From the NCBI RefSeq assembly GCF_030028105.1, contig NC_092375.1, positions 167,027,415 to 167,091,414 of the forward strand: 64,000 nt of DNA, read 5' to 3'. Within the stretch, counting starts at the first letter, position 1. Each line of letters starts with the position of its first letter. The position numbers and the translations under genes are program-made. Below, piece by piece: positions 11,079 to 57,789 of the stretch. Source of the stretch: Mobula birostris (Eukaryota). The notes beneath the pieces were generated by a model that did no database searches, was not told where the DNA came from, and worked only from the letters and a program-made list of their open reading frames with translations.

Positions 11079-11329
11079 TTAAGGTATATTTTCTTTGACT
11101 TTGGAAACCACTTTTTTCTCTTTGACTCTTCTGTTCTGAAACCAAATGGTGACTTGTCTTTCCGTAAGGTTGGTAGCTGAAGATATCCTTCTTCTTTTTT
11201 CCTTGGTGATAAATTTGTTAGTGGCATATTCTCGCTCGAGTTCTTTAAGCTGGGTTTTCGTATAAGGAACCCTTTTCTTCCTCCCTCGCCTGTAAATGTT
11301 TATATCAGTTTGATTGTGCATCACATCTC
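11079..11329 (-). CDS. hoxd13: HoxD13 coding exon 2 (homeodomain)
   Basis: Acceptor cccccag|GA. Encodes [60 protein letters not shown], a group 13 homeodomain. Confidence 0.95.
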
Positions 11330-11671
11330 CTGGGGGGTGAAATGCAAACTATGAGAACAAGCTTCAAACAGCTGCAGTTGGAAGGGTGTGGGGAATAAAA
11401 GGGGGACGATAGAGAGAGGGTTAAAAAAGAAGTCAAAATGACAACTCGCAGACCTTTGTCTATTTGGTACACTTGATAATTTTTGAGTCATTTAAACATT
11501 CAGTCCAACACACATCTGAATATATTAATTCTGATATAGGAGTTCCATGCATTGTTCATTCTACATATTACAAAGAAACAAAGCACTAAATGAAAGTTTC
11601 TTCTATATTCTTTGTTTTATACTAAAAATGAGTTTAATATATTTTTTTCCTGTGAAAATATTTCGTGATAC

Positions 11672-12356
11672 CTGAAAGAGGCGATTTCCAAAAATGTGAA
11701 GACTGCGTCTGATCTTTAGGGCAGTACACTTGACCATTCCACCCACTAGCAAATGTCCATGGCTGGTAACCCTCCATGGATAATAAGGCTTCATGCCTAG
11801 GCTCTCCGTGGCCACTTATGGTAGGGACTACTGGAACGTCCAAATAGCTAGAAACCCGTTGGTATGGATTAGGGTAACTTTGATAAAATGCAAATTCTTT
11901 AGCTCGGTTTGCTACCTCGTCAGTTGGGACAGGACTGTTGGTGAAACTCGAAACATCCGTGTATTTGTCCACTGGGTAACCGGCTAGGGATGCATGAGCA
12001 CTAGATTTCAGTCCAGTTTGCTGTATGCCAACATTTCGACAGCTGTAATAGCTGCTTCCAAAATGATAACCGTAGTTGAAGGCTGGGTTTGGAGGGCTAG
12101 TAGGAGCTGGACATGGGTTGCATTGCTTGGCTGATTCAGAAATGACAGAATGCGTACGATCTCCGCCTGAGTAAGCAGGTCCCGAAGATAAAGAGTTGTG
12201 ATGAGCTCCAAATGCAGTGGGAGATAGAAAATTCCTGCATTGATTTGAAGGGACGTTCCCACCCAGTCCTTCCATCTCCGACTTATTCGTGTTGTTTCTG
12301 TTGTGCAGGTATCTGATGGTATCAGTCCTCCAAGGGGCTGACAGAAGAGCTGTCAT
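11672..12356 (-). CDS. hoxd13: HoxD13 coding exon 1 (alternative start at ATG 12275, MEGL...)
   Basis: Hox13 N-terminal motifs [49 protein letters not shown]. Donor TCAG|gtatca, with the intron starting at 11671. Length 685 nt, phase 1. Confidence 0.9.
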
Positions 12357-12385
12357 ATCACGACCCACTGCAAACTAAGTACTGC

Positions 12386-12391
12386 TTTATA
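12386..12391 (-). promoter_or_regulatory. HoxD13 TATA box
   Basis: TATAAA on the minus strand, 30 nt upstream of the first in-frame ATG and embedded in the inverted repeat ACTGCTTT-ATA-AAAGCAGT. Confidence 0.5.
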
Positions 12392-13409
12392 AAAGCAGTC
12401 CTGGGAGTGAGAAGAGGTGCTTATTTTCACTGATTAGAATGTGCTTTGCGCGAGTGAAACGCGATAGGTTGACTCTGACCACGTGATACACTGCAACTGA
12501 GCTGGCTTCAGTACTTAGAGCACTCCTTAAAATCATCGGTATTTTCCCCAAATTAATTCATATTAAATAACCAATGCTGTTGATGTACATTAAAACTAGT
12601 ATTGTGGTTTTTTTCGTCAGTATTGTAACCAATGCAATTTAGTCGAAATTTATATGGGATATTATTGATAAATTGTAAAATATATCCTTTAATTAACGGG
12701 TGTGGTATATGTACAAATATTAAGTACATTAAGAATTCTTTAAGAGAGTTTTCAGTTAAAATGAAGCATTGGAGATTTTTCGGAAAATTGTCATTTCCGT
12801 TTAGAAATCTGAATGTGTTGTCATGGTCATCATGGGATTGACAGAATGGGGAACAACGATGAAGACATCTCGGTAACAACCTTTTTAGCATCAAAGTATG
12901 TTGTTCGTGATAACAGATATCTATCTTAACTATAAAACCTGCAAGAAATAGATTTTAAATTCATATATTCTCTTTCTGTAATTACATCTTTAGGCGACCA
13001 CTTTTAAATTGGCTTACGTTCAGTTATGTAAAATATCATATTTTCAAAATTCTCAGCGGAAGCTACTCAGACCTATACCTTTTTCCCACTCGGAATTGCG
13101 TGTTTTTGTATTATACAATTGCTTATTGGTGTATTTTTTCCCATATGAGGCTAGGTTTGTATCTTGTGTCGACCAAGCAAAGATATTGCAAATTGCCACC
13201 GCCCCGACAGCAATCTGGCCATGTCTGAATTTCCAATTATTTATGTCAAGCAGACGAAAATATTATCTCATGTTGTTTCGCAACAGGTCCTGTTGTTTAG
13301 CAATGACCAGAAAATATCTAGCGTTTAGTGAAGTCTAGCACAATTCCAGTACCCGGTTCGTTTCACTCCATGGTTATCTCACACCTTATGGCCGAAACAC
13401 TTAAATGTA

Positions 13410-13802
13410 CAGTACTGCGCAGAAGTCATAGGCACAAGTAAACAAAAAATTTGCAAAGCGAAGATGCTTTCAAAAATAATGCATTGAAGTTCCTTAATAT
13501 CAGAAATTTATAATAAAAAGCAGTAAATAGTAAAAAAAACTAAATCAAATCAATATTTGGTGTAACGACCCTTTGCCTTTAAAAATGCATCAATCATCTT
13601 AGGCAGTTTTGTAAGAAAATCGTCTGGTAGGTTGTTCCAAGCATCCTAGAGAACTTGCCACAGTTTCTCTGCAGACTTTGGCTGTCTCGCTTGCGCCTGT
13701 TTCTCCAGGTAACCCCAGACTGCCTCGATGATGTTGAGATTAGGACTCTGTGGATGCCATACCATCTGAGACCATATAGGGTGCCTAAGACTTTTGCACA
13801 GT
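13410..13802. mobile_element. Non-autonomous Tc1-like DNA transposon
   Basis: Left end TA|CAGTACTGCGCAGAAGTCATAGGCAC. Right end GTGCCTAAGACTTTTGCACAGT is its imperfect inverted repeat. Confidence 0.7.
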
Positions 13803-16800
13803 GATCAAATAAGTCTTGTTATATGGAATAGAATATCTTAGATGATGGCTATATAACAACAGTAAAGCGTGATGTAAACATCTATATAATTCTCTACCAC
13901 AATTACACCACACATCACGCTGGGAAAACTAAATGTAACATGTACATACGCTCTTTAGATGTTATTTGTGTGCGCCATGAGATTTACATTCACTTCTTGA
14001 CTTACGAAAACGAAGATTGATACAGATATTTAAATAAAAGGTACAAGAAGCAATAAGAATAACACTTAATAAATGCTAAACTGATAATGGCAAGAGATGA
14101 GACTCCGTAACCCAGTTTCAGCAGGAACCCGGTCACCTGACGATTCCAGAGAATGTTTTCCGATCATCTCGGAAGTTAGAATCTGTGCACAAGAAATTCG
14201 TTGATCATGTTACCAAATAAGATTTTTTTTAAATTTTAATTTGAATCCTGGCGTATTTTTCAAAATGCCGAAGGGCAGAATGAAAAATAATATGTTATTA
14301 CTTATTGCTTGGATTTCCAGCATCTGCTGATTTTCTCTTGTTTGTGATAAATTATTACTTCACAGAGACAAAGCAGATTTTCCTTCCTAGATTCCGTGAT
14401 AAGGAAATACAAGTGGAACTCATGGTTTGGCACTAAATTACATGCATTGATTTCAGTAAATCCTTTTGGCTTTCAGTACTTCCTTCTTTACAAAGATACC
14501 CGTTTCCTGTACTGACTATGTTCTTCGCTAATATTTAGAGAAGCAGCCCGAAAAGCGGTTTTAATAATCTGAGAGAAGTATTGCAGAACAGTGAGTTCCA
14601 ATTTATCATAATTTGTACTCAAATACTATGTTAAAAGCGCAACACATTTGTTCAAGAGCGCACGAGACATCTCATCAGAGAAAAGAAAGTATATAAAGTG
14701 AGTTGCTCCTACTTTCATAGTGAAGAAAATGTAAGATAATATTTGCTTTCGGACAGCTGCTGTTATTTAGAATTCCGGGGATTGGATTAAAATAGAAGTC
14801 GCCCTCTCAAGTTGCTCGCATCTCTGGAATGCAGACAAAGGGGTTCTTTCCGGAAGTAGATCAAGGCCAAGGTCAAGGTAGAGAGGGGGTGGGGTAGGGG
14901 GAGACAGAGAGAAAGAAGGAGAGGGATCAAGACGGTAAATAGTGGTTTAAAGCTGTTGAACAGCTCGGTGGGAATCACTCAAGAATCTGAAAATCTGACA
15001 TTAGCTGTGATTTGTAATTGGAAAAACATGTGATATTTTAATATGTCAAATCACTGAAAACAATTATTTGCTTCGAATTATGTAAAATGAAGCTCTAATT
15101 TACTTACAGGGGGTGTGTTAGTTTGCTCACTCAATTCGCTTTAAAACTAAATCCCCATTTTCATAAGCACGTTGAGTGAGATTCATGTTGGATTTCACCC
15201 GAAGGCCCATCATCAAATTTCAGAGCAACGAGAAATCGGAATAAATGTGGCCTTACGGCATCGCCCGCATCTAAAACAGACTAAAAATGCAGAGTCTACT
15301 CATATAAACAATTTGCATTTTATTTAAGCGTTTGGGCAATATTTCCTTGCAATGTGCTGATTGTATTTAGGGAGTAAAGGTAACGTTTAATCGTTCTATA
15401 TAAACATTAAAGGCATTTATTGAACGATATTTTGATCCACAATTATTTTCTTTAATTTTTTCACACTCTTGTGGAAAATTTAACACAAACTTTTCATTGT
15501 TGATTTGTGAACTGTGCTTGGAATCCTAGTTGGGGTTTTTTTTTTCGAAGTATAAAATTTTGTTTATTTTATATTGCATTCGTATTGGTGTTAGGTTTTA
15601 CTTCGGTGTTGGGGTGAGTGAAAATAGAATTAAGAAGTTTTTTGTGTAAAATATTTGCTGTATGTTATTCTGAATGGCAAGATTCATAAGCCTAACGTAT
15701 TAATAATATTTTGGTTCAAAATTATACTTGTGGTAAGTGTAATATGTGCTTAAAAATAGACATCATTCACTATTAAGTGTCAAGAATTCTGATTTGAGAA
15801 TATGTTAGGTATTTCTCTAATTATACTCAGAATTCTTCGGCATGCTAGATTGATTCTGAATTATTTCAGCCTGTCATTAAAGTAATTCGATGCAATTTAA
15901 TGCGTAAGTATGTTAAAACTGATATTAAAATCTAGAAGTACTGTATCTACTTTACGTAGTTACCGATACCAGATACTTGTTTATGAATAACAATCAGTTA
16001 ATAGAATATATATACAGATATGCAGACTAAGAGGTTATATGAGCTCCGTTTGACTTCACATTCTCATAAAATTGTCGTTTTTTGTCAAACACAATGGCTA
16101 ATACTAATACCTGAATAAAACCAGATTACTGAACTTCTTTATTTTCTCAGTAAAAAGTTAAGTATTATCAATGCGTGAGTATCCAGTGTGCAAATTGAAT
16201 TATGCAATATATGTGATTAAAAATAAACTCTGGACAATCCCTGCTATGAAATCCATTTTATTTGCAACATTTCTGTTTTACATCGATAATAACTTACTCA
16301 TATAACGGGCTTACAACTAAACTGGATTTACTCCATCAACAATAATCAAGATAATGAAATATGTCTTTAATCTAATGTCATTAGCAACCAATTAAACGCT
16401 TAAAATGAACACCTCTTGCTTCGACTTCTATGCGTGTGTTCCAGTTAGAACTACGGAAGTAATTTACTACACTGCAAGCTGCAAAACTATACTCTCTGCT
16501 CTGGGTCTACCAAATACTTCAAAGCTTTGTGTCTGTGTATGGGAAGATAATGTGGAAATTGTATAGACCCCAATTATTTAATCAAAAAACACAATTAAAA
16601 ATATTCTTTAAATAGTACACTCTTCCTTCGCACAACAACCACATTCAAATCGCTGTTGTGGGGATCAAACAGGCCAAAACCCAGCTTACAGAATTATTGT
16701 ATTAAAATGCACGCCTGTTTCCAATTCCAGGTCTTCAAATTGAGTTTACAATAATGTATGAGAAGAGTAGATTTTGTAAAGATAATATATTTTGTATAAA

Positions 16801-18218
16801 AGTAAATTTACCTCTACAGGTACCAGCGTAATCTAATCCCAGAACACAATACTGTAGTTTCATTAGGTAGAAAGAAAACTTATCAATAAGCATAATGTCC
16901 CGGGATAGTGCATGGGATTCAAATACATATATAAAATGCAAAATATGTATTCATGTCTCCAAATTAGAATGCTTATTAGTTAAGCAAATGCACGTCCAAT
17001 ATGTATTCTAACGAATTTTAGAATTCTGAAATCAGGTGTTTTATTCTGTATAGTACAAGGAAATATCATTCCTGCCTCCGTTCTATTCGACAGAGGTGTA
17101 GCGAATAAATAAGTAAATTCCACTGCCCACTATTTAAAATTAGTTAACTTGAATGTTCAGGTTGTTTTGGTAATGTTGTATTTAAACATTCATTCTAATG
17201 TACTATTAAGTCTAACAGTATCCTATAGGACATTGCATCCATTAAAACTTTAATAACTAGGAATTTGGTGTCTTCATGAACAGCACTGGCGCGCAGATAT
17301 TTACTTTTGCATTATTCCATGGCCTTCGCAGTGGTAAAACGGGAGCTATGAACGCACGTAGCCTTCAGAAGGTTGTACGTGTCATGGTTAATTGGATCGG
17401 GCTGCAGATCTCATTCGGTACTCATTTTAAAGTAGCCAATGTTTACTCTTTTTTTCTTTTTATAAATGATGGAAAATATAGTTTGTCATAATGTAATTAT
17501 ACAGTGGCGCTACGTGGAGAGCTTGCAAATTGGTCTAATTTCAAGGCGGTAAATCTGATTGTCAGTTTTTAATACGTATAAAGGTCGCCCAGAAAATCTG
17601 TAATAGAAAAAGAAGTTGACAGGATGGGCACAAGAAGTAGGGTTATTATTGTATATTCTTCAATATCTATAAGAATTGCTATTCAGCAATGGGGTGTTTA
17701 TTGCATGAACTATATTCCAAGTATCCTTGAAGGAAGAAGACCTAAAAGTTTTCCACGTCATTAATAGTCTAATAAGGGGTTAAAAAAGGTACAAACGACG
17801 TCAAACAAAATTCTCATACTCCATTCTATGTAATGTGGAAGCCTTCCCATAGTTGACACCTTCTCCCAACACTAACATATAAAGAGTGTCCGAATATTCA
17901 CTTGGCAATACTGTTCAACACTAGGGCCATACTGTTTTTAAATTACCTGCCCTGGACATAAAAGATGACTCCAAAATAGAATTCATTTTGTTAAGGGTGG
18001 TACATAAACGCAATGCTTTGAATCAGACGGTACATTGGCGGCAATATTTGACCTTTGGTATGCAATTGAAAAAGGTATTAACTGACCAGCATTTCATTCG
18101 AATGCTTTTAATTGTAATTACCTAATGAACCGAGTTTTAAACATCAGGTTATTGTATCCTTTACTATGCACGTAAACTATTTCTCTAGATATTCACAGCA
18201 AATATTGGCATGTAACAT

Positions 18219-18490
18219 ACACAAAATTATGGAGGAACTCAGCAGAAACAAGAGAAAATCTGCAGTGCTGGAAATCCAAGAAACACACACAAAATGCTGG
18301 AGGTTCTCAGCTGGCCAGGCAGCATCTATGGGTAATAGTATAGACGACGTTTCGGGAAGAGACCTTTCAGCGGGACTCAAAGAGCCTTGGCCCGAATCAT
18401 CGACCGTTTACTCTTTTCCATAGATCCTGCATCGCCTTCTGAGTTCCTCCCGCATTTTGTGTGAGAAACTCAGAAGGTCACACAGCATCC
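18219..18490. mobile_element. Degenerate Penelope-derived inverted-repeat element, apparently inserted into an older copy
   Basis: Arms at about 18286-18377 and 18380-18463 are inverted copies of the same terminal sequence seen at 19415-19495. The hammerhead cores are decayed. Confidence 0.65.
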
Positions 18491-18491
18491 A

Positions 18492-18795
18492 CGAGGGGTG
18501 ATTGGTAAGTTCTTGGCCTAAGGTAGAAGGAGTCAATTTTAGAAAACCTAGCACATTTATTTTTCAACATAGTCCCCTCCTACATGTACACACCTAGTTC
18601 AGCGGTCATGGAACATACGGATCCCTTCTTTGTAGAAGTTAGCGTCTTGGACCTCCAGTAAGTGGTCCACAGCAGGGGTGATTGATAAGTTCGTGGCCTA
18701 AGGTAGTTGGAGATGAGTTATTAACTTCAAACTTTCCGCATAATCACTCAAAGAGTTGAACTACATGTGCATGTAACGAGAGCTGTATAACTCAG
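18492..18795. mobile_element. Mariner-like DNA transposon remnant
   Basis: Begins CGAGGGGTGATTGGTAAGTT (mariner-type terminus), with an internal direct repeat of about 40 nt at 18674-18713. Confidence 0.5.
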
Positions 18796-19495
18796 GCCCG
18801 CAATCCATCCATCCAGGTGAGGCAACAGCGAATATGTTGGGGTCTTCTGCTGTACCCGGTGCTCCCGATATGGCCTCCTCTACACTGATGAGATCCGAGG
18901 TAGATTGGAGGACGTCTTTACGGAACACCTTCGTTTCATCCGCAAAAAAAAACCGAGAGTTTCCGGTTTTAATTCCAATCCGCATTCTTATTTAGATATG
19001 TCGGCCCATAGGTTCCTCTATCGCCATGATGAGGCCACTCTCAGGTTGGAGTTCCGATACCTCTTGTTCCTTCTGGATAACTTGATGGTATGAATATCGA
19101 TTTCTCTAACTTCTGGTCATTTTCTACCCTCCCCCTTCCTTCTTCTTCAATTCCTCACTCTGCCTCCCTCCTTACCGCTTCTCTTCCCCAGATCTGCCTA
19201 TCATCTCCTCCTTCCCTTTCTCCAATGGTCTCCTATCAGTTGCCTTCTTCTCCAGTCCTTTACCTTTTCCACTTCACCTCCTAGCATCTTGCTTCATCCC
19301 TCCCACACCAACCTAGGTTCGTCAATCACCTTCTAGCGTGTACTCCTTCCCCTTTCCGCACCTGCTTATTCTGGCGTCTCTTCCCCCCCCCCCGCCCACC
19401 CCCCACCTTCCTTTCAGTCCTGAAGAAAGGTCTCGGCCGAAAGATAGTTGCTGTCTGACCTGCTGAGTTCCTCCAGTATTTAGTGTGTGTTGCTA
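18796..19495 (+). mobile_element. Penelope-like retroelement 3' fragment (decayed GIY-YIG endonuclease, pyrimidine-rich UTR, terminal repeat)
   Basis: Translation VGVFCCTRCSRYGLLYTDEIRGRLEDVFTEHLR is a decayed GVIYC..C..CGLLYIGET.RRL..RF.EH motif. The fragment ends with CAGTCCTGAAGA...GAAA and ...GTGTGTGTTGC. Confidence 0.8.
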
Positions 19496-19574
19496 CAGAT
19501 GCGAGACATACATATCTGGACATAAGCAAATTAGGTGTAAAAACACAGATACAAATGAGATCTGATTATTCTCA

Positions 19575-19690
19575 GCGCGGTAGCCTCGTTGGTAGTACCA
19601 GCGACACGGGTTCAATTCTGCCCCTGTTTATAAGGATTTTGCACGTTCTCCCCGAGACTGGGTGCTCCGATTTCCTCCCACATACCAAAA
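19575..19690 (+). mobile_element. tRNA-derived V-SINE (HE1-like) fragment
   Basis: B-box-like GGTTCAATTC followed by a V-domain-like GGGTGCTCCGATTTCCTCCCACATACCAAA. Confidence 0.6.
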
Positions 19691-20064
19691 AATATTCTGC
19701 AGCCAACTTCCTTTCCTCATTAGCTTTAATGATTCTGACAAAGAATAATAAAATTAAATACTAGGAGGGAGGGGAAAACTGACTATAAAAAGTCATTTTC
19801 TAGAGCAGAAAAAGGAAGGCAAGTTTTAAAAACTAAATTGATTATGTTACAGAAACAAAATCCTGTAACCAGCGTCACTTTATGTACATACAATTACATA
19901 TGTATTTAAGCTATCTTATATTTTTTATTTTTATTGCCTTTTCATTATTCTGTTCTTCATCTTACTTTATTGTGCTGCATCCGATGCAGAGTAATAATTG
20001 TTTCCTTCTCCTTTATACTCTTCTACTGGAAATGACATTAAACAATCTTGAATCTTCAGTCTTG

Positions 20065-20142
20065 AAACTCAGCAGGTGAGGAAGCAGCTATGGAGGGGAA
20101 TAAAAACAGTCGTCGCTCCGGGCGTGACCCTTCACCAGGACT
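20065..20142 (-). mobile_element. Decayed Penelope terminal-repeat fragment
   Basis: Similar to the arms at 21878-21980. The hammerhead core is mutated (CTGGTGA...GGAGC). Confidence 0.6.
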
Positions 20143-21701
20143 CTGCATAAATTGATTATGCTCGCCGGATTTGTTTGATCAATTGTCTTTGCAATAACAT
20201 AATGAGATGATTTCCTTTATAATTGTATATAGTATTTGAGATTAATATATCATTGAGTTAAACAATACTGAGCAGAATTGCTATAATGTTATCAACCGAA
20301 CTCCCGCAGGAACACAAATGGAAATTCTACTTTTGTTTACGAAATCAGTGAGAGTATTATAGTGGAACTATATAATTATTAAAATTCAAAACAGGAAGAG
20401 AATAGCAAATACTCAAGGTGGAAATAATCCTGAAGCAAAATTAGGCATTGAACAGATTAACACAGAGATAGATAGGAATACAGATACATACATACATTCA
20501 GGCGGACATACCTGCATGTATATATACATAGATCGATTGATTTGAAGATAATTTGAATATTCATTCGAAAACACTGTTCCGTAATAAGACAGTGCTTTCA
20601 AATTATCTGCTCTACGCAAAAGATGACTCCGTAAAGAATTCATTGTTTTTGAAGTGTCGCTGGAAGCGTTTAAGTCCTTTATAAATGCATAATTCTAATC
20701 AAATGTCGCATTGTCTAGAAGCTTTGGCCTTGATTTGACCTTGAGTTATACATCTGACAATCACTGATTCAAGCGATTCTCTTGTAATTGGTTAGTATCT
20801 AACACTTTTCGAGTACTGCTAAGTTTACCGTGTAGGAATTTTTTCTTTATATGCACAACAGGTATATGTTATTTTGTGTTTTGTATTTCAGAAACTTCGT
20901 CATGAAAAACCTCACAGAAAAATACATTTGATTCTTACGTTTTCCCTGAAATCGAGTACAGGATAGACAGACGGATAAATCGAAATCAATCGATCGATCG
21001 ATCAATCAATCAAGAGATAAGTATATATTGTAATTTAAATAGAACCTGGATTTATTTTGTATTTTTAGAATTTAAATGCGTTATGTAAACGTACATTCGT
21101 CTCCAGCTATTAAATTCTGGCTTATACATATTTCAACGTGTTTTGGAAAAACAAGGTTAAAACTGTTTTGAATGCACACCGAATGCCATGTAGCGCCTTC
21201 ACAAAGTTGCCAGTTTTATTAAAATTCACATGCAGTACAATGAGGTATTTCAAATAATTTCAAACCTGAAAATAAAATCATTCAGCTGAAAAGTCCTATA
21301 CAACCCCTGCCAATATTATCATTTTGTCACTAAAGGTAACGATCAGAAAATCAGTTTCTTCATTCGAAGTAGTCAAGTGTTTGTTACATTTTATGGTTTA
21401 CAGATAATTATTTTAGCAAATCAAACAATATCTCCATTAAGAATTAAATGCAGTGTAACTATTCCTTGTTCCCTACTTTTAGCAAAATCAACCCGTTAAT
21501 ATCACTTAACGCAAACAAAACTAAATCTTACAGTATAGTCAGATCATTTTATCACACAGTTGTTTAAAGAATGAAAATGATCTGTGTTGAATCATCTATG
21601 TCCATGTATATTTGAAGAGACACAATTAGCCATTGCGTCCTAGAAACGATATTTTTGTAACTGATAAAGCCATGCTTCCTTTGAATAAAAGTGTTCCCCT
21701 T

Positions 21702-21791
21702 TCAGACTCGAGAGCAGCTTGGATGCATCGGTTGTTGCACACGAAGAAGCTTTTTTTCTTTTTGTCTCTGGTTTTGGAACCATATTTTTAC
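21702..21791 (-). CDS. hoxd14: HoxD14 coding exon 3 (helix 3 and C-terminus)
   Basis: Acceptor tattttcag|GTA. Encodes VKIWFQNQRQKEKKLLRVQQPMHPSCSRV*. WFQNQR and the intron between Q and V of the homeobox are hallmarks of vertebrate Hox14. The spliced protein is 264-266 aa. Confidence 0.9.
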   Translation of the reverse strand, partial: VKIWFQNQRQKEKKLLRVQQPMHPSCSRV

Positions 21792-21939
21792 CTGAAAATA
21801 GAAGCAAAATTTAATAAAACAAAATATGGCAAATATGAACGGAAACAACAGGAATTCTGCAAATGCTGGAAATTCAAGCAACACACATCAAAGTTGCTGG
21901 TGAATTCAGCAGGCCAGGCAGCATCTCTAGGAAGAGGTG

Positions 21940-21977
21940 CAGTCGACGTTTCAGGCTGAGGCCCTTCGTCAGGACTA
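21940..21977 (-). ncRNA. Minimal type I hammerhead ribozyme motif, sense to the HoxD14 pre-mRNA
   Basis: The minus strand reads UAGUC-CUGACGA-AGGGCCUCAGCCU-GAAAC-GUC^GACUG. Stem I is UAGUC/GACUG, the conserved core is intact, stem II is a hairpin, and a palindromic ACGU replaces helix III. Confidence 0.7.
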
Positions 21978-22027
21978 ACTGAAGGATGAGTGAGTAAGGG
22001 ATTTGAAAGTTGGAGGGGGAGGGGAGT

Positions 22028-22065
22028 TAGTTCTGACGAAGGGTCTCGGCCTGAAACGTCGACTG
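22028..22065 (+). ncRNA. Minimal type I hammerhead ribozyme motif, antisense to HoxD14
   Basis: UAGUU-CUGACGA-AGGGUCUCGGCCU-GAAAC-GUC^GACUG. The core is intact and stem I has G-U wobbles. Confidence 0.68.
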
Positions 22066-22260
22066 CACCTCTTCCTGCAGATGCTGCTTGGCCTGCTGCG
22101 TTCACTAGCAACTTTGACGTGTGTTGCAAATATGAACGGCCTCGGTTTAATGTTCTGTGAGAATAAACACGCCCACCTGTTGACAAACTAAAAGGGAACA
22201 CCGTCGCCCAGGTACTCCACTTTTTTTCGTTTTGTAAAAGCAGAAAAGAGATAGTCTTAC

Positions 22261-22442
22261 CTGCCTTTCTGTCAAACCTAATTTAAAAGAAATATTTAAT
22301 CGGATTTCGGGGGTCAGGAATCGATTTTTTTCGAAAGCTTTTTCCAGTTCAGCAATTTGCTGTTTGCTGTAAGGGATTCGTTTCTTCCTTCGTCTATTTT
22401 CTAGGTTTTGCGACGTTGACCATTGCGATGTAAATCCTAAAG
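22261..22442 (-). CDS. hoxd14: HoxD14 coding exon 2 (homeodomain helices 1-2)
   Basis: Encodes [45 protein letters not shown], then donor CAG|gtaaga. Two in-frame acceptors are possible (exon start 22442 or 22436). Confidence 0.9.
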
Positions 22443-23113
22443 CTGAAGTAACAGACACATCCATGAGCAGGTTTACCATCAATTTAAGGAAATATAATGT
22501 TTTAGCAGGTGGAAGTCTCTGCTAACCATACTACTGATGCCATCCTAACTTATTTTGTTATCTATTTAAATTTTCAGTTCTATTAAAGTCGGATGATGCA
22601 ATCTATGGCAATATGTTTATACGCAAAATTACTAATCTTCAAGAAATACATTTGCATTTAACTTAAAGTGAAATGAATTGTCGTATACCATTTTTTTTCA
22701 AATTTGGCTCCAATCTGTCCTTGTATTTTTCAAAGGGTGGAGACTATATCCAAAGTGTTTGATTTTCAACAAAAGCAGACGTTCGTCTTACCTCGTTAGG
22801 TGAAAATACTTTATTCTCAAGCATAAAAGTTTGGCTTGGCCTCTGAAATGTTTTAATTAAAAATAGATATAAAGAAGCGAAGTTAATAGGAAATAATGGA
22901 TTGTTTTCTTTTGGTGAATTGGTTGAAAAGATGTCACGCGTATCTCGATTTCGTCTACTAAAAGTAATTGCCTTGCGACCAGACTCAAGTTAAAGTAAAC
23001 ACAATCAAACAAGAAAATAGCAACCTTGTTGTTATTTAACATCTATAGAAAATGAACGCAATCTTTAACCACGTCAACCGCCACAGGATATCAATATGCA
23101 TCAACAGACTGAC

Positions 23114-23642
23114 CTAAATGCATTGGGGTGCTGGAACTTGTAGTATGAAATGCTCCTCCTGAAATAGATGCTCCACAGCATTGAGAATAGTTGTAGGCAG
23201 ACGTGTCCGGGTCATTGGGATCGGCCCGGGTCTGGGCAGGTGCAGCTCGGGGGTATTCTAATGCCCAATTCTGATAACTTGTTGAGCTTGTGGGGACTTC
23301 TCCTTTAATGCAAGCATTATGGCGGTAGTTACTAAACAAAGATATATCACTGTCACTTTGAAGCTGGTTGGCAGTGAATGGAACTGCCTCAGGTGAGATG
23401 GCAACAATCCCCCGATCTGGTTTTCCATACGAACCGCAAGCTGAAATGTCTTCTGAATACAATCCGTGGCATCTTCCACTTGGAGTCGTTTTCAAAGCCG
23501 AAGGAAACATAGCAGGCGAAAATCCAACGTTCGTGGAAAGTACTGGTTTCATGTCAATTGGGCGCACTCCATCTTGCAACAATACCGTCCTATCGCTAGA
23601 TGTCTCTAACGTCAGCTTGTACTGCAGCGACGTTGAATCCAT
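23114..23642 (-). CDS. hoxd14: HoxD14 coding exon 1
   Basis: Open frame of 176 codons from the ATG at 23642 to donor TTAG|gtcagt (intron starts 23113). It is phase 1, matching exon 2, and lies between HoxD13 and Evx2. Confidence 0.8.
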
Positions 23643-23984
23643 CTTATAAATTCTCTAAAATTAATGGTTGTCTTCACTCCAAACCCTGCAGATATAATTT
23701 CACATGTACGTTTGTCACAACTTGTAAGTGCAAATATTGAGAATGATATACCCGTGCAGGCAATGAGTACCTCTCAGAAAATGGCACTATTTATTAAGCA
23801 CATACTACACCCTGGTCCAAACTACCTGATCATTTTATTGCAGTAACTCTACCGCAGTTGGCAAATAAAACAGAGTGTGGACTCTTTGCAAATTAAACTC
23901 TGCGAACAAACGTCAAGGACACGAACTACATCACAGAATGACACATCTGTACTGTAGTTGTTGACCCAAGGTCAATGCTGACTT

Positions 23985-24100
23985 TTGTATCTACTTCCTC
24001 TTTCTTTTTTTCTCTGTAAATGCCTGTAAGAAAATTAATCTTAAAGAAGTATATAGTAACAAATACGTACTTTGATAATAAATTTATTTTCAAGTTTGAC
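23985..24100 (+). repeat. 3' tail fragment of a Rex1/Babar-type LINE upstream of HoxD14
   Basis: ...AAGAAAATTAATCT...GTACTTTGATAATAAATTT matches the LINE tails at 52085-52145 and 59960-60016. Confidence 0.5.
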
Positions 24101-24694
24101 GAGTTGGTTGCTGGTTGCCTCGAATGTGTAAATATGTCCTTTTTTACACCGAGTGCCAGAAATGAGTCATAATATAGTAGAATTCTGAACTGTAATCTGA
24201 AATAAACCTTCTTCGTGACAATTCAGCATGCGTCAGACAAAAAGCATTTTAAAGGAGCTTTTATTGCCCGCTATAACCCTTTAAGCTTCAGAATTACACC
24301 TCGCGTACCAGCATTAGACGGAAGAGCAAATATTTACCCTGTTACTGTAAAACCTTCTTTGAGCGAGGTAGAGAGATTACTACTGAACTGCTGTGATCAG
24401 TCTATTTCTTGGGGTTTGGTCAGTTGTATGACTTTACTAACCGATTAAAACTTTCTATTACCATAAATTTAAAGCTAATTACAATATAAAGATTAGAAAC
24501 CAGAATCAGAGAATCGAGGGACCACAGAACAATACAATGGATATTAAATAATGTAACCCATGTTCAATGTGCTTTCTTTGTACTCTATTCATTACACTGC
24601 CAGTTTCATTAATCAGTATTATGGCAATGAAAATCGGCATTATTCTACAGTCTTAAATCAACCACTAATTAATAATCAGTTAATTATAACAAGA

Positions 24695-24825
24695 ACACGA
24701 GGAATTCTGCAGATGCTGGAAATTCAAACAACACATATCAAAGTTGCTGGTGAACGCAGCAGGCCAGGCAGCATCTCTAGGAAGAGGTACAGTCGACGTT
24801 TCAGGCCGAGACCCTTCGTCAGAAC
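24695..24825 (-). mobile_element. Single-arm Penelope terminal repeat with hammerhead core (24790-24825)
   Basis: Near-identical to 21843-21975. The minus strand reads GUU-CUGACGA-AGGGUCUCGGCCU-GAAAC-GUC-GACUG, with a shortened stem I. Confidence 0.8.
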
Positions 24826-24982
24826 GAGATAAGGACGTATAACGAGATTGTGTTTTGACTATTCAGATAGTTGGGCTGTGAAATAGATTTGGACATGTAA
24901 AATTTTGTCCCATCACTTGCTCTCGACAATTACAAACCTTCTACGACATCCACTGTTTGAAAATGGCAGGGCCGCTGTTACT

Positions 24983-24983
<1 letters not shown>

Positions 24984-25034
<51 letters not shown>
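24984..25034. repeat. (CA)n microsatellite
   Basis: About 25 uninterrupted CA units. Confidence 0.97.
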
Positions 25035-25039
<5 letters not shown>

Positions 25040-57032: not shown

Positions 57033-57056
57033 GAAAACCGACTAACTAGTTAACAG

Positions 57057-57229
57057 CAACACACATAGAAGTTGCTGGTAAACGCAGCAGGCCAGGCAGC
57101 ATTTCTAGGAAGAGGTACAGTTGACGTTTCGGGCCGAGCTCCTTCGTCAGGACTGCCTGGCCTGCTGCGTTCACCAGCAACTTTTATGTGTGTTGCTTGA
57201 AATTCCAGCATCTGCAGATTTCCTTGTGT
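57057..57229. mobile_element. Penelope-derived short inverted-repeat element with a hammerhead motif (57118-57155, minus strand)
   Basis: Inverted arms and a one-sided tail of about 33 nt, with a 14-bp TSD TAACTAGTTAACAG (57043-57056 and 57230-57243). The minus strand reads CAGUC-CUGACGA-...-GAAAC-GUC-AACUG. Confidence 0.85.
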
Positions 57230-57789
57230 TAACTAGTTAACAGAAACAGTTAGCTAAAAGATTATTTTCAATAAGTATAATTATTAATTATTAATTACTA
57301 TATTATTTTAGTAACCTTTTGTGTGCACATTAATTTCCTTTGTGTGCTGGTTGAAAAATGTGTGCACACTTGCACAGCTTAGAGAGAACATGGTCTGTGG
57401 GACTTTTTAAAAAAACAACAAATTCTTCAAGTACAAGCAGCATCACATATATCAATTCCATTTCATTTACTCTATTAGGTGCATAGTCAACAAACTAAGA
57501 TAGATGACCCACTGATAGCTGAAATCATGTTTGTGCTGTTAAATTTCAGCTGGCTTAGTAGGTCGAGTACCATAATGTGTTTCCGTAAGTGTTTTTATTT
57601 CAGATTTTCAGCATCCGCCATGTTTTTCTTGTGTTCTGTTAGTGGTGACTAGTTTTCAACAAACATTTAAAAAAATAATTTCATATGACAGTGTTTTAAT
57701 AAAGGATGACATAAGTGTTTTTTTTAAAAAAAAACATTCTTGAGAGATCACCTAATGAGCCCATTTGGATAGAACTTAGAAATCAGAAG

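Follow-up and report, generated by a model that had tools for sequence, protein, structure and literature searches.

Insertions of EN+ Penelope-like elements (PLEs) have been described as units in which a copy lies next to an inverted truncated copy and a 30–40-bp tail is present on one side only (PMC8557442, PMC3846280). The tail is reported to correspond to two RT start sites (PMC11167929). Minimal hammerhead ribozyme motifs (min-HHRs) in the pLTRs, including pairs on opposite strands 100–700 bp apart, have already been described as well (PMC4209133). According to the same source, a single min-HHR of S. mansoni showed no detectable cleavage in vitro, and dimers had low activity. The PLE hammerhead of the anole was cleaved in vitro in reactions with the PAc protein and 5 mM Mg; as described for this element, insertion did not require cleavage, and the cut site was not matched by any RNA-seq ends (PMC11167929). 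On the host side, a second intron that divides the homeobox is given as a known state of vertebrate Hox14 genes (PMC3707753), and shark HoxD14 has been reported to be expressed in the hindgut and to be decoupled from the Hox code (PMC5054437).

Here we describe a hammerhead-bearing insertion in intron 2 of HoxD14, located in a 64,000-nt stretch of Mobula birostris DNA (the window). We consider it very probable that a recent head-to-head pair of truncated Penelope ends, flanked by a target-site duplication (TSD), occupies this intron, that its hairpin buries the hammerhead and that it is spliced out as a near-neutral passenger, neutrality being judged here from sequence.

The locus resembles the described EN+ PLE units (PMC8557442; Adineta Pen2a_Av, PMC3846280) in its head-to-head pLTRs, in a tail on one arm (35 nt here), in the TSD and, at the level of the family, in an ORF with RT followed by GIY-YIG. 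It differs from them in that the HoxD14 copy has no ORF and consists of just 182 + 103 nt of terminal repeat; in the length of the TSD, 14 nt versus 8–10 nt in the rotifer examples given there; and in its host, a Hox intron. With the metazoan min-HHRs characterized in PMC4209133 the motifs share the type I topology lacking helix III and loop 3, the palindromic ACGU, a stem I of 5 bp and the additional nucleotide that precedes stem II, whereas stem II here is 4 bp long and has G.U, not G-C, as its first pair. Cartilaginous fishes are not named among the min-HHR hosts in the part of PMC4209133 drawn on here, the supplement of which may list chondrichthyan motifs. The likeness to the Poseidon element PAc of the anole, as far as described in PMC11167929, lies in the two RT starts separated by the tail (putative at our locus) and in the HHR within the pLTR; the core here is CUGACGA, and hence there is no ATG within it. 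A literature search for a Penelope hammerhead in a Hox intron found no related report.

HoxD14 and the anatomy of the insertion

The identity of the gene as HoxD14 holds by synteny, since Evx lies on one side and Hox13/Hox12-type homeoboxes on the other; the neighbouring homeoboxes are read as Hox13, Hox12 and on down to Hox1, with labels taken from their sequences. Exon 2 has a match to the Pfam Homeodomain model (E 1.7e-10), intron 2 interrupts the homeobox between ERQ and VKIWFQN, and the ORF is intact across all three exons (Table 1). In the window together with loci L150–L163, 12 Hox homeoboxes were read as D1–D5 and D8–D14, plus Evx2; given these paralogue labels, the set is an ancestral-type HoxD cluster.

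An earlier reading of the same DNA, made from the letters only (the sequence-only reading), had described an intron 2 of 469 nt with a TSD-flanked insert with inverted arms, and we recovered the same anatomy in an intron of the GT-AG type. The limits it gave for the arms, 21878–21980 and 22025–22127, stand; its start of the insertion at 21831 had to be moved, as the TSD begins 2 nt further left. The arms are 103 nt each and 90% complementary (arm-to-arm identity 90.3%), enclose a 44-nt loop and have ~2 nt (AG) in common at their junction. The distance to the intron 2 acceptor is 86 nt from the end of the duplex and 51 nt from the end of the element. The host branch region, pyrimidine tract and acceptor AG are all outside the insertion, and the last 37 bases of the intron are untouched.

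Table 1. Features of HoxD14 and of the insertion in its intron 2 (positions in the window)
Feature	Position	Strand	Comment
HoxD14 exon 1, coding part	23114..23642	-	ORF intact
HoxD14 exon 2	22261..22442	-	homeodomain residues 1-43 matched; joint 22442/23114 seen in organism C
HoxD14 intron 2	21792..22260	-	469 nt, GTAAGA...TTTTCAG; 172 nt in empty allele; splits homeobox
HoxD14 exon 3	from 21791	-	ORF intact
Target-site duplication, left copy	21829..21842	.	14 nt; single copy in organism C
Target-site duplication, right copy	22126..22139	.	14 nt
Insert proper	21843..22125		283 nt
5'-truncated pLTR	21843..22024	-	182 nt; sense to HoxD14; terminates at full family 3' end
Penelope 'tail'	21843..21877	-	35 nt; on sense arm only
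Inverted tail-less pLTR arm	22025..22127	+	103 nt; antisense to HoxD14; transcribed first
Hairpin loop	21979..22024	-	44 nt; pyrimidine tract and branch-point-like CUUAC/CUCAC, then AG 21980-21979 at stem base
Minimal type I hammerhead motif, HoxD14 strand	21940..21977	-	predicted cut 21945^21944; predicted sequestered in duplex
Second minimal hammerhead motif, opposite strand	22028..22065	+	

The Penelope-like family and its insertion form

Exact matches to the 33-nt core number 23,789 in the 4.0-Gb genome, versus 0 for the reversed pattern used as a control in the same genome; the hammerhead feature is therefore not a product of chance. To sample the family, 133 stretches of 10 kb, spaced evenly over large contigs, were examined (1,319,800 non-N bases). 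Among the 156 copies in this sample, 33 head-to-head pairs within 1.5 kb were found versus 7 tail-to-tail pairs; extrapolated roughly to the whole genome, this corresponds to ~470,000 copies and 80,000–100,000 insertions of the hairpin type. Within the window, the family has another head-to-head hairpin at 57055–57230.

Long copies of the family carry an ORF with RVT_1 followed by GIY-YIG (L139:516-2192, E 5.9e-6 and 1.9e-4), both Pfam matches falling just below the curated cut-offs (26.6 vs 29.6 bits and 22.1 vs 22.6). The terminal repeat of the family, to which the ORF-less HoxD14 copy belongs, begins ~250 nt past the stop of this ORF. The linked RT and GIY-YIG domains agree with the Penelope-like origin that the sequence-only reading had assigned to the insertion.

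What we find at HoxD14 is an inverted 5'-truncated pLTR, a tail within the 30–40-nt range at one end, and a TSD with an empty pre-insertion site; together these features read as the standard head-to-head inverted-pLTR-plus-tail form of an EN+ PLE. Elsewhere in the family the same traits recur. A one-sided tail is present in 28 of 40 hairpins, that of HoxD14 included, where the sense arm reaches the 3' end of the family and the other arm is 35 nt short of it. TSD-like repeats of 12–14 nt, often 13–14 nt, were detected in 15 of the 29 short hairpins scanned. The arms of the same hairpin agree at 128 of 140 comparisons made in family-polymorphic columns, pointing to one template species per insertion; an origin of the arms from different templates was rejected on this concordance. 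We also rejected the idea that the hairpin is itself a non-autonomous family that moves as one unit, given that junctions and loops differ among the hairpin copies. The insertion is probably an ordinary new instance of a known form and, as most likely read, has little import in itself, being one of ~10^5 similar hairpins by a rough extrapolation.

The HoxD14 insertion could have arisen in the following way. The endonuclease of the element would have nicked the two strands 14 nt apart, and two cDNAs, with priming sites ~35 nt from each other on one RNA species, would have produced the tailed and the tail-less arms, which may then have been joined by short microhomology. The templates were presumably uncleaved, because both arms run through the cut site; this is consistent with PAc, for which the uncleaved RNA is described as the insertion template (PMC11167929). 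The hammerhead would then be a relic of the replication cycle of the element.

Young copies tend to start at the 5' edge of the hammerhead: of 50 such 5' ends, 15 lie within −10..+10 of the core (loci L057–L149 and L170–L209, some hairpins counting with both arms), and none of the 50 begins at the cut site (+24..+32). The cluster may mark the 5' end of the element RNA, reached after internal RT initiation.

Age, distribution and neutrality

The insertion is present in two species, M. birostris and organism B. Contigs of organism B run into both ends of the element, with 25 substitutions in ~2,260 flank bases. A contig of organism C, a close relative, matches 22126–22284 with 0 differences and then continues directly with 21799–21828, i.e. 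the site is empty; this allele has one copy of the TSD and an intron 2 of 172 nt. In the same run of organism C exon 1 is joined to exon 2 (a skip of 671, with 14 differences in 681, ~2% in exon 1). Since the element is present in organism B and the site is empty in organism C, the insertion is likely to be recent and lineage-restricted, and because organism C splices intron 1, HoxD14 is transcribed without the element. For organism E an absence of the insertion is only suggested: a contig stops exactly at 21842 and no contig bridges the site. Dataset X9, whose RNA status is a guess, passes unspliced through intron 1 and may be DNA; a single 161-nt piece came from X17 and nothing from X11, and none of the three is informative on expression in carriers. 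The presence or absence of the insertion can serve as a marker to distinguish close relatives, and alleles with and without it form a clean pair in which to ask if host splicing is affected by PLE hairpins or minimal hammerheads.

Divergence from the column majority of young copies is 10/182 (5.5%) in the sense arm and 7/103 (6.8%) in the inverted arm, compared with a family median of 4.6% (quartiles 3.0–5.9%, n = 53). Neutral-looking divergence, which the sequence-only reading had named among the marks of an inert insertion, is what the two arms display. The core is intact in 25 of the 37 young copies that span the motif and in 15 of 21 at 3–7% divergence. Across the family the core positions vary less than the others (1.9% vs 3.7% at non-CpG sites), a difference that we read as selection on source elements and from which subfamily polymorphism is not separated.

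Signs of duplex preservation were sought in the divergence and mismatches of both arms and none was found; if anything, the duplex is eroding. In RNA of the HoxD14 sense, base pairing is lost at nine of the 10 sites where the arms do not match. The 13 young hairpins that were sampled systematically (median 95.3%) all exceed the HoxD14 copy in arm-to-arm identity, and values as low or lower occur in 3 of 24 search-derived hairpins. The mismatches comprise 7 A.C to 1 G.U, against 93:73 pooled over 39 other hairpins (two-sided p 0.07); among 15 comparable hairpins, one equals this 7:1 bias. The low identity and the A.C excess hint, though weakly, at a duplex that is not neutral. As to an exapted intronic regulatory RNA, we found the element absent in organism C, its divergence ordinary and 9/10 mismatches pair-breaking, a profile that does not fit that class.

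The distribution of the family within the cluster is uneven. Between HoxD13 and HoxD1, a span of 90 kb, there is one copy where 8.4 are expected (P 0.002), while four insertions (14305, 18246, 21843 and 24694) fall in the ~17 kb between HoxD13 and Evx2 (region 11147–28000; binomial P 0.003, with boundaries chosen after seeing the map). Given four insertions in this interval versus one in the 90-kb cluster core, the presence of the HoxD14 copy is better explained by an interval that tolerates the family repeat than by masking of the ribozyme. Such tolerance fits the decoupling of shark HoxD14 from the Hox code reported in PMC5054437. The insertion would have persisted as the HoxD13–Evx2 interval is under weak constraint against repeats; its persistence in two species is allowed but not demanded by neutrality. 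It also illustrates that the neighbourhood of HoxD14 lies outside the repeat-poor core of the cluster.

Splicing, the hammerhead and the duplex

It is unlikely, in our estimate, that the insertion mildly perturbs the splicing of a possibly slow intron 2 through the loop tract and the AGs at 21979 and 21975, with selection perhaps eroding the duplex. In the folding predictions the loop is fully unpaired (1.00), and its tract has 17/20 pyrimidines vs 15/20 at the true acceptor; the tract with AG 21980–21979 is a candidate cryptic acceptor. Both AGs lie beyond the loop tract, and splicing to either, as read from the sequence, would bring a stop codon of the element into frame and cost the protein its recognition helix. 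The AG at 21979, however, is predicted to be paired (unpaired 0.06), whereas the native acceptor is intact and mostly unpaired. Nor did we find spliced-like genomic copies at the cryptic AG: of 21 copies starting near it none qualified, and upstream no GT donor matched the pattern used.

The contigs of organism C bear on the same question. In one of them exon 1 is joined to exon 2; a second extends from exon 2 across the whole of intron 2 to exon 3, while intron 1 is not covered by any. Where the contigs end is exactly as expected for a bubble formed by spliced and retained versions of intron 2: one breaks off at 22257, just past the GTAA common to both, and the 64 unattached letters consist of 37 from the intron and 27 from exon 3. 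This geometry suggests that spliced and retained forms of intron 2 coexist in organism C, and gives a hint that the homeobox-splitting intron is slow to splice; the retention signal, however, comes from an organism without the element. The A.C bias, rare as it is among comparable hairpins, is not significant. A further suggestion of the sequence-only reading, that the duplex draws the splice sites closer, found no support, as the folded span of 219 nt exceeds the ancestral 172 nt. We find it equally improbable that the Penelope hairpin alters the rate of removal of a partly retained HoxD14 intron 2 in a few related species while selection erodes the duplex. If a splicing effect were true, a scrap of a transposon would be adjusting how much of a relict Hox protein is made, and carrier and non-carrier species would be a natural experiment on PLE hairpins and splicing.

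Turning to the hammerhead, a CUGANGA...GAAA-CG-UC core with a 5-bp stem I and a 4-bp stem II is present in both arms. The sequence-only reading had placed a minimal type I hammerhead without helix III in each arm; on a pattern and stem check both cores are intact, the CUGANGA, GAAA and UH core elements, stems I and II and the palindromic 15.1–16.1 were found in both, and its predicted sense-strand cleavage position, 21945/21944, was reproduced. The MFE fold of the 38-mer has stems I and II (z −2.17). Stem II begins with a G.U pair and not with the G10.1-C11.1 pair of min-HHRs, which is described as highly conserved, not absolute (PMC4209133); family counts at this position are T 41, C 14 and G 1, G.U being the majority state. 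The stem II variant of the sense arm has 26 exact genomic matches, including the HoxD14 copy. A canonical Rfam-type hammerhead was rejected, there being no helix III and 0 matches in an Rfam scan of the 64-kb window at gathering thresholds. A non-LTR retrozyme with head-to-tail tandem HHRs was also rejected, as the two motifs are head-to-head on opposite strands.

The sequence-only reading went further and proposed that the element could influence whether a complete Hox14 homeodomain is made. A model along these lines, in which a cleavage-competent ribozyme, protected or switched by the antisense arm, regulates full-length Hox14, we regard as very improbable. The core is indeed intact and sense to HoxD14, and the anole PLE hammerhead was cleaved in vitro with the PAc protein at 5 mM Mg (PMC11167929). 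The idea that the antisense arm, being transcribed first, masks the ribozyme is also upheld by folding predictions, with P(stem I) ~1e-33 and an arm duplex of −178.7 kcal/mol; whether the intron is complete or still growing, the hammerhead stems have nearly zero probability, and the motif is completely masked in the predicted duplex. A duplex of −179 kcal/mol, though, is not switchable, and even in isolation the sense motif takes an active-like monomer fold with a probability of 0.0007. Against the model also stand the inactive monomer and the low activity of dimers reported for S. mansoni (PMC4209133), the 0/50 young copies starting at the cut site, and a relative, organism C, that expresses HoxD14 while missing the element.

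A second sense hammerhead was looked for in the predicted HoxD14 pre-mRNA and none was found. The nearest copy, at 24694–24825, was rejected as a dimer partner: its place is not in intron 1 but ~1 kb upstream of the ATG of HoxD14, and it would matter only if the 5' UTR reaches there. It is a solo young pLTR copy, 94.7% identical to the reference copy, with an intact core and a truncated stem I. Because a single min-HHR is described as inactive (PMC4209133) and the predicted transcript has no sense partner, masking is probably not needed; with the three other HoxD13–Evx2 insertions taken into account, it finds no support as the reason why the insertion is tolerated. The hammerhead is likely to be inert in the HoxD14 intron, in keeping with the reading of the insertion as a near-neutral passenger.

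ADAR editing of long intronic duplexes is established, and some editing of this one is plausible. That the duplex (103 bp, 7 A.C mismatches, longest uninterrupted run of 28 pairs) serves as an ADAR or Dicer substrate whose edits or small RNAs matter for HoxD14 is nevertheless the least probable of the explanations considered, since the tens of thousands of equivalent hairpins extrapolated genome-wide leave nothing locus-specific and intronic edits leave the coding sequence unchanged.
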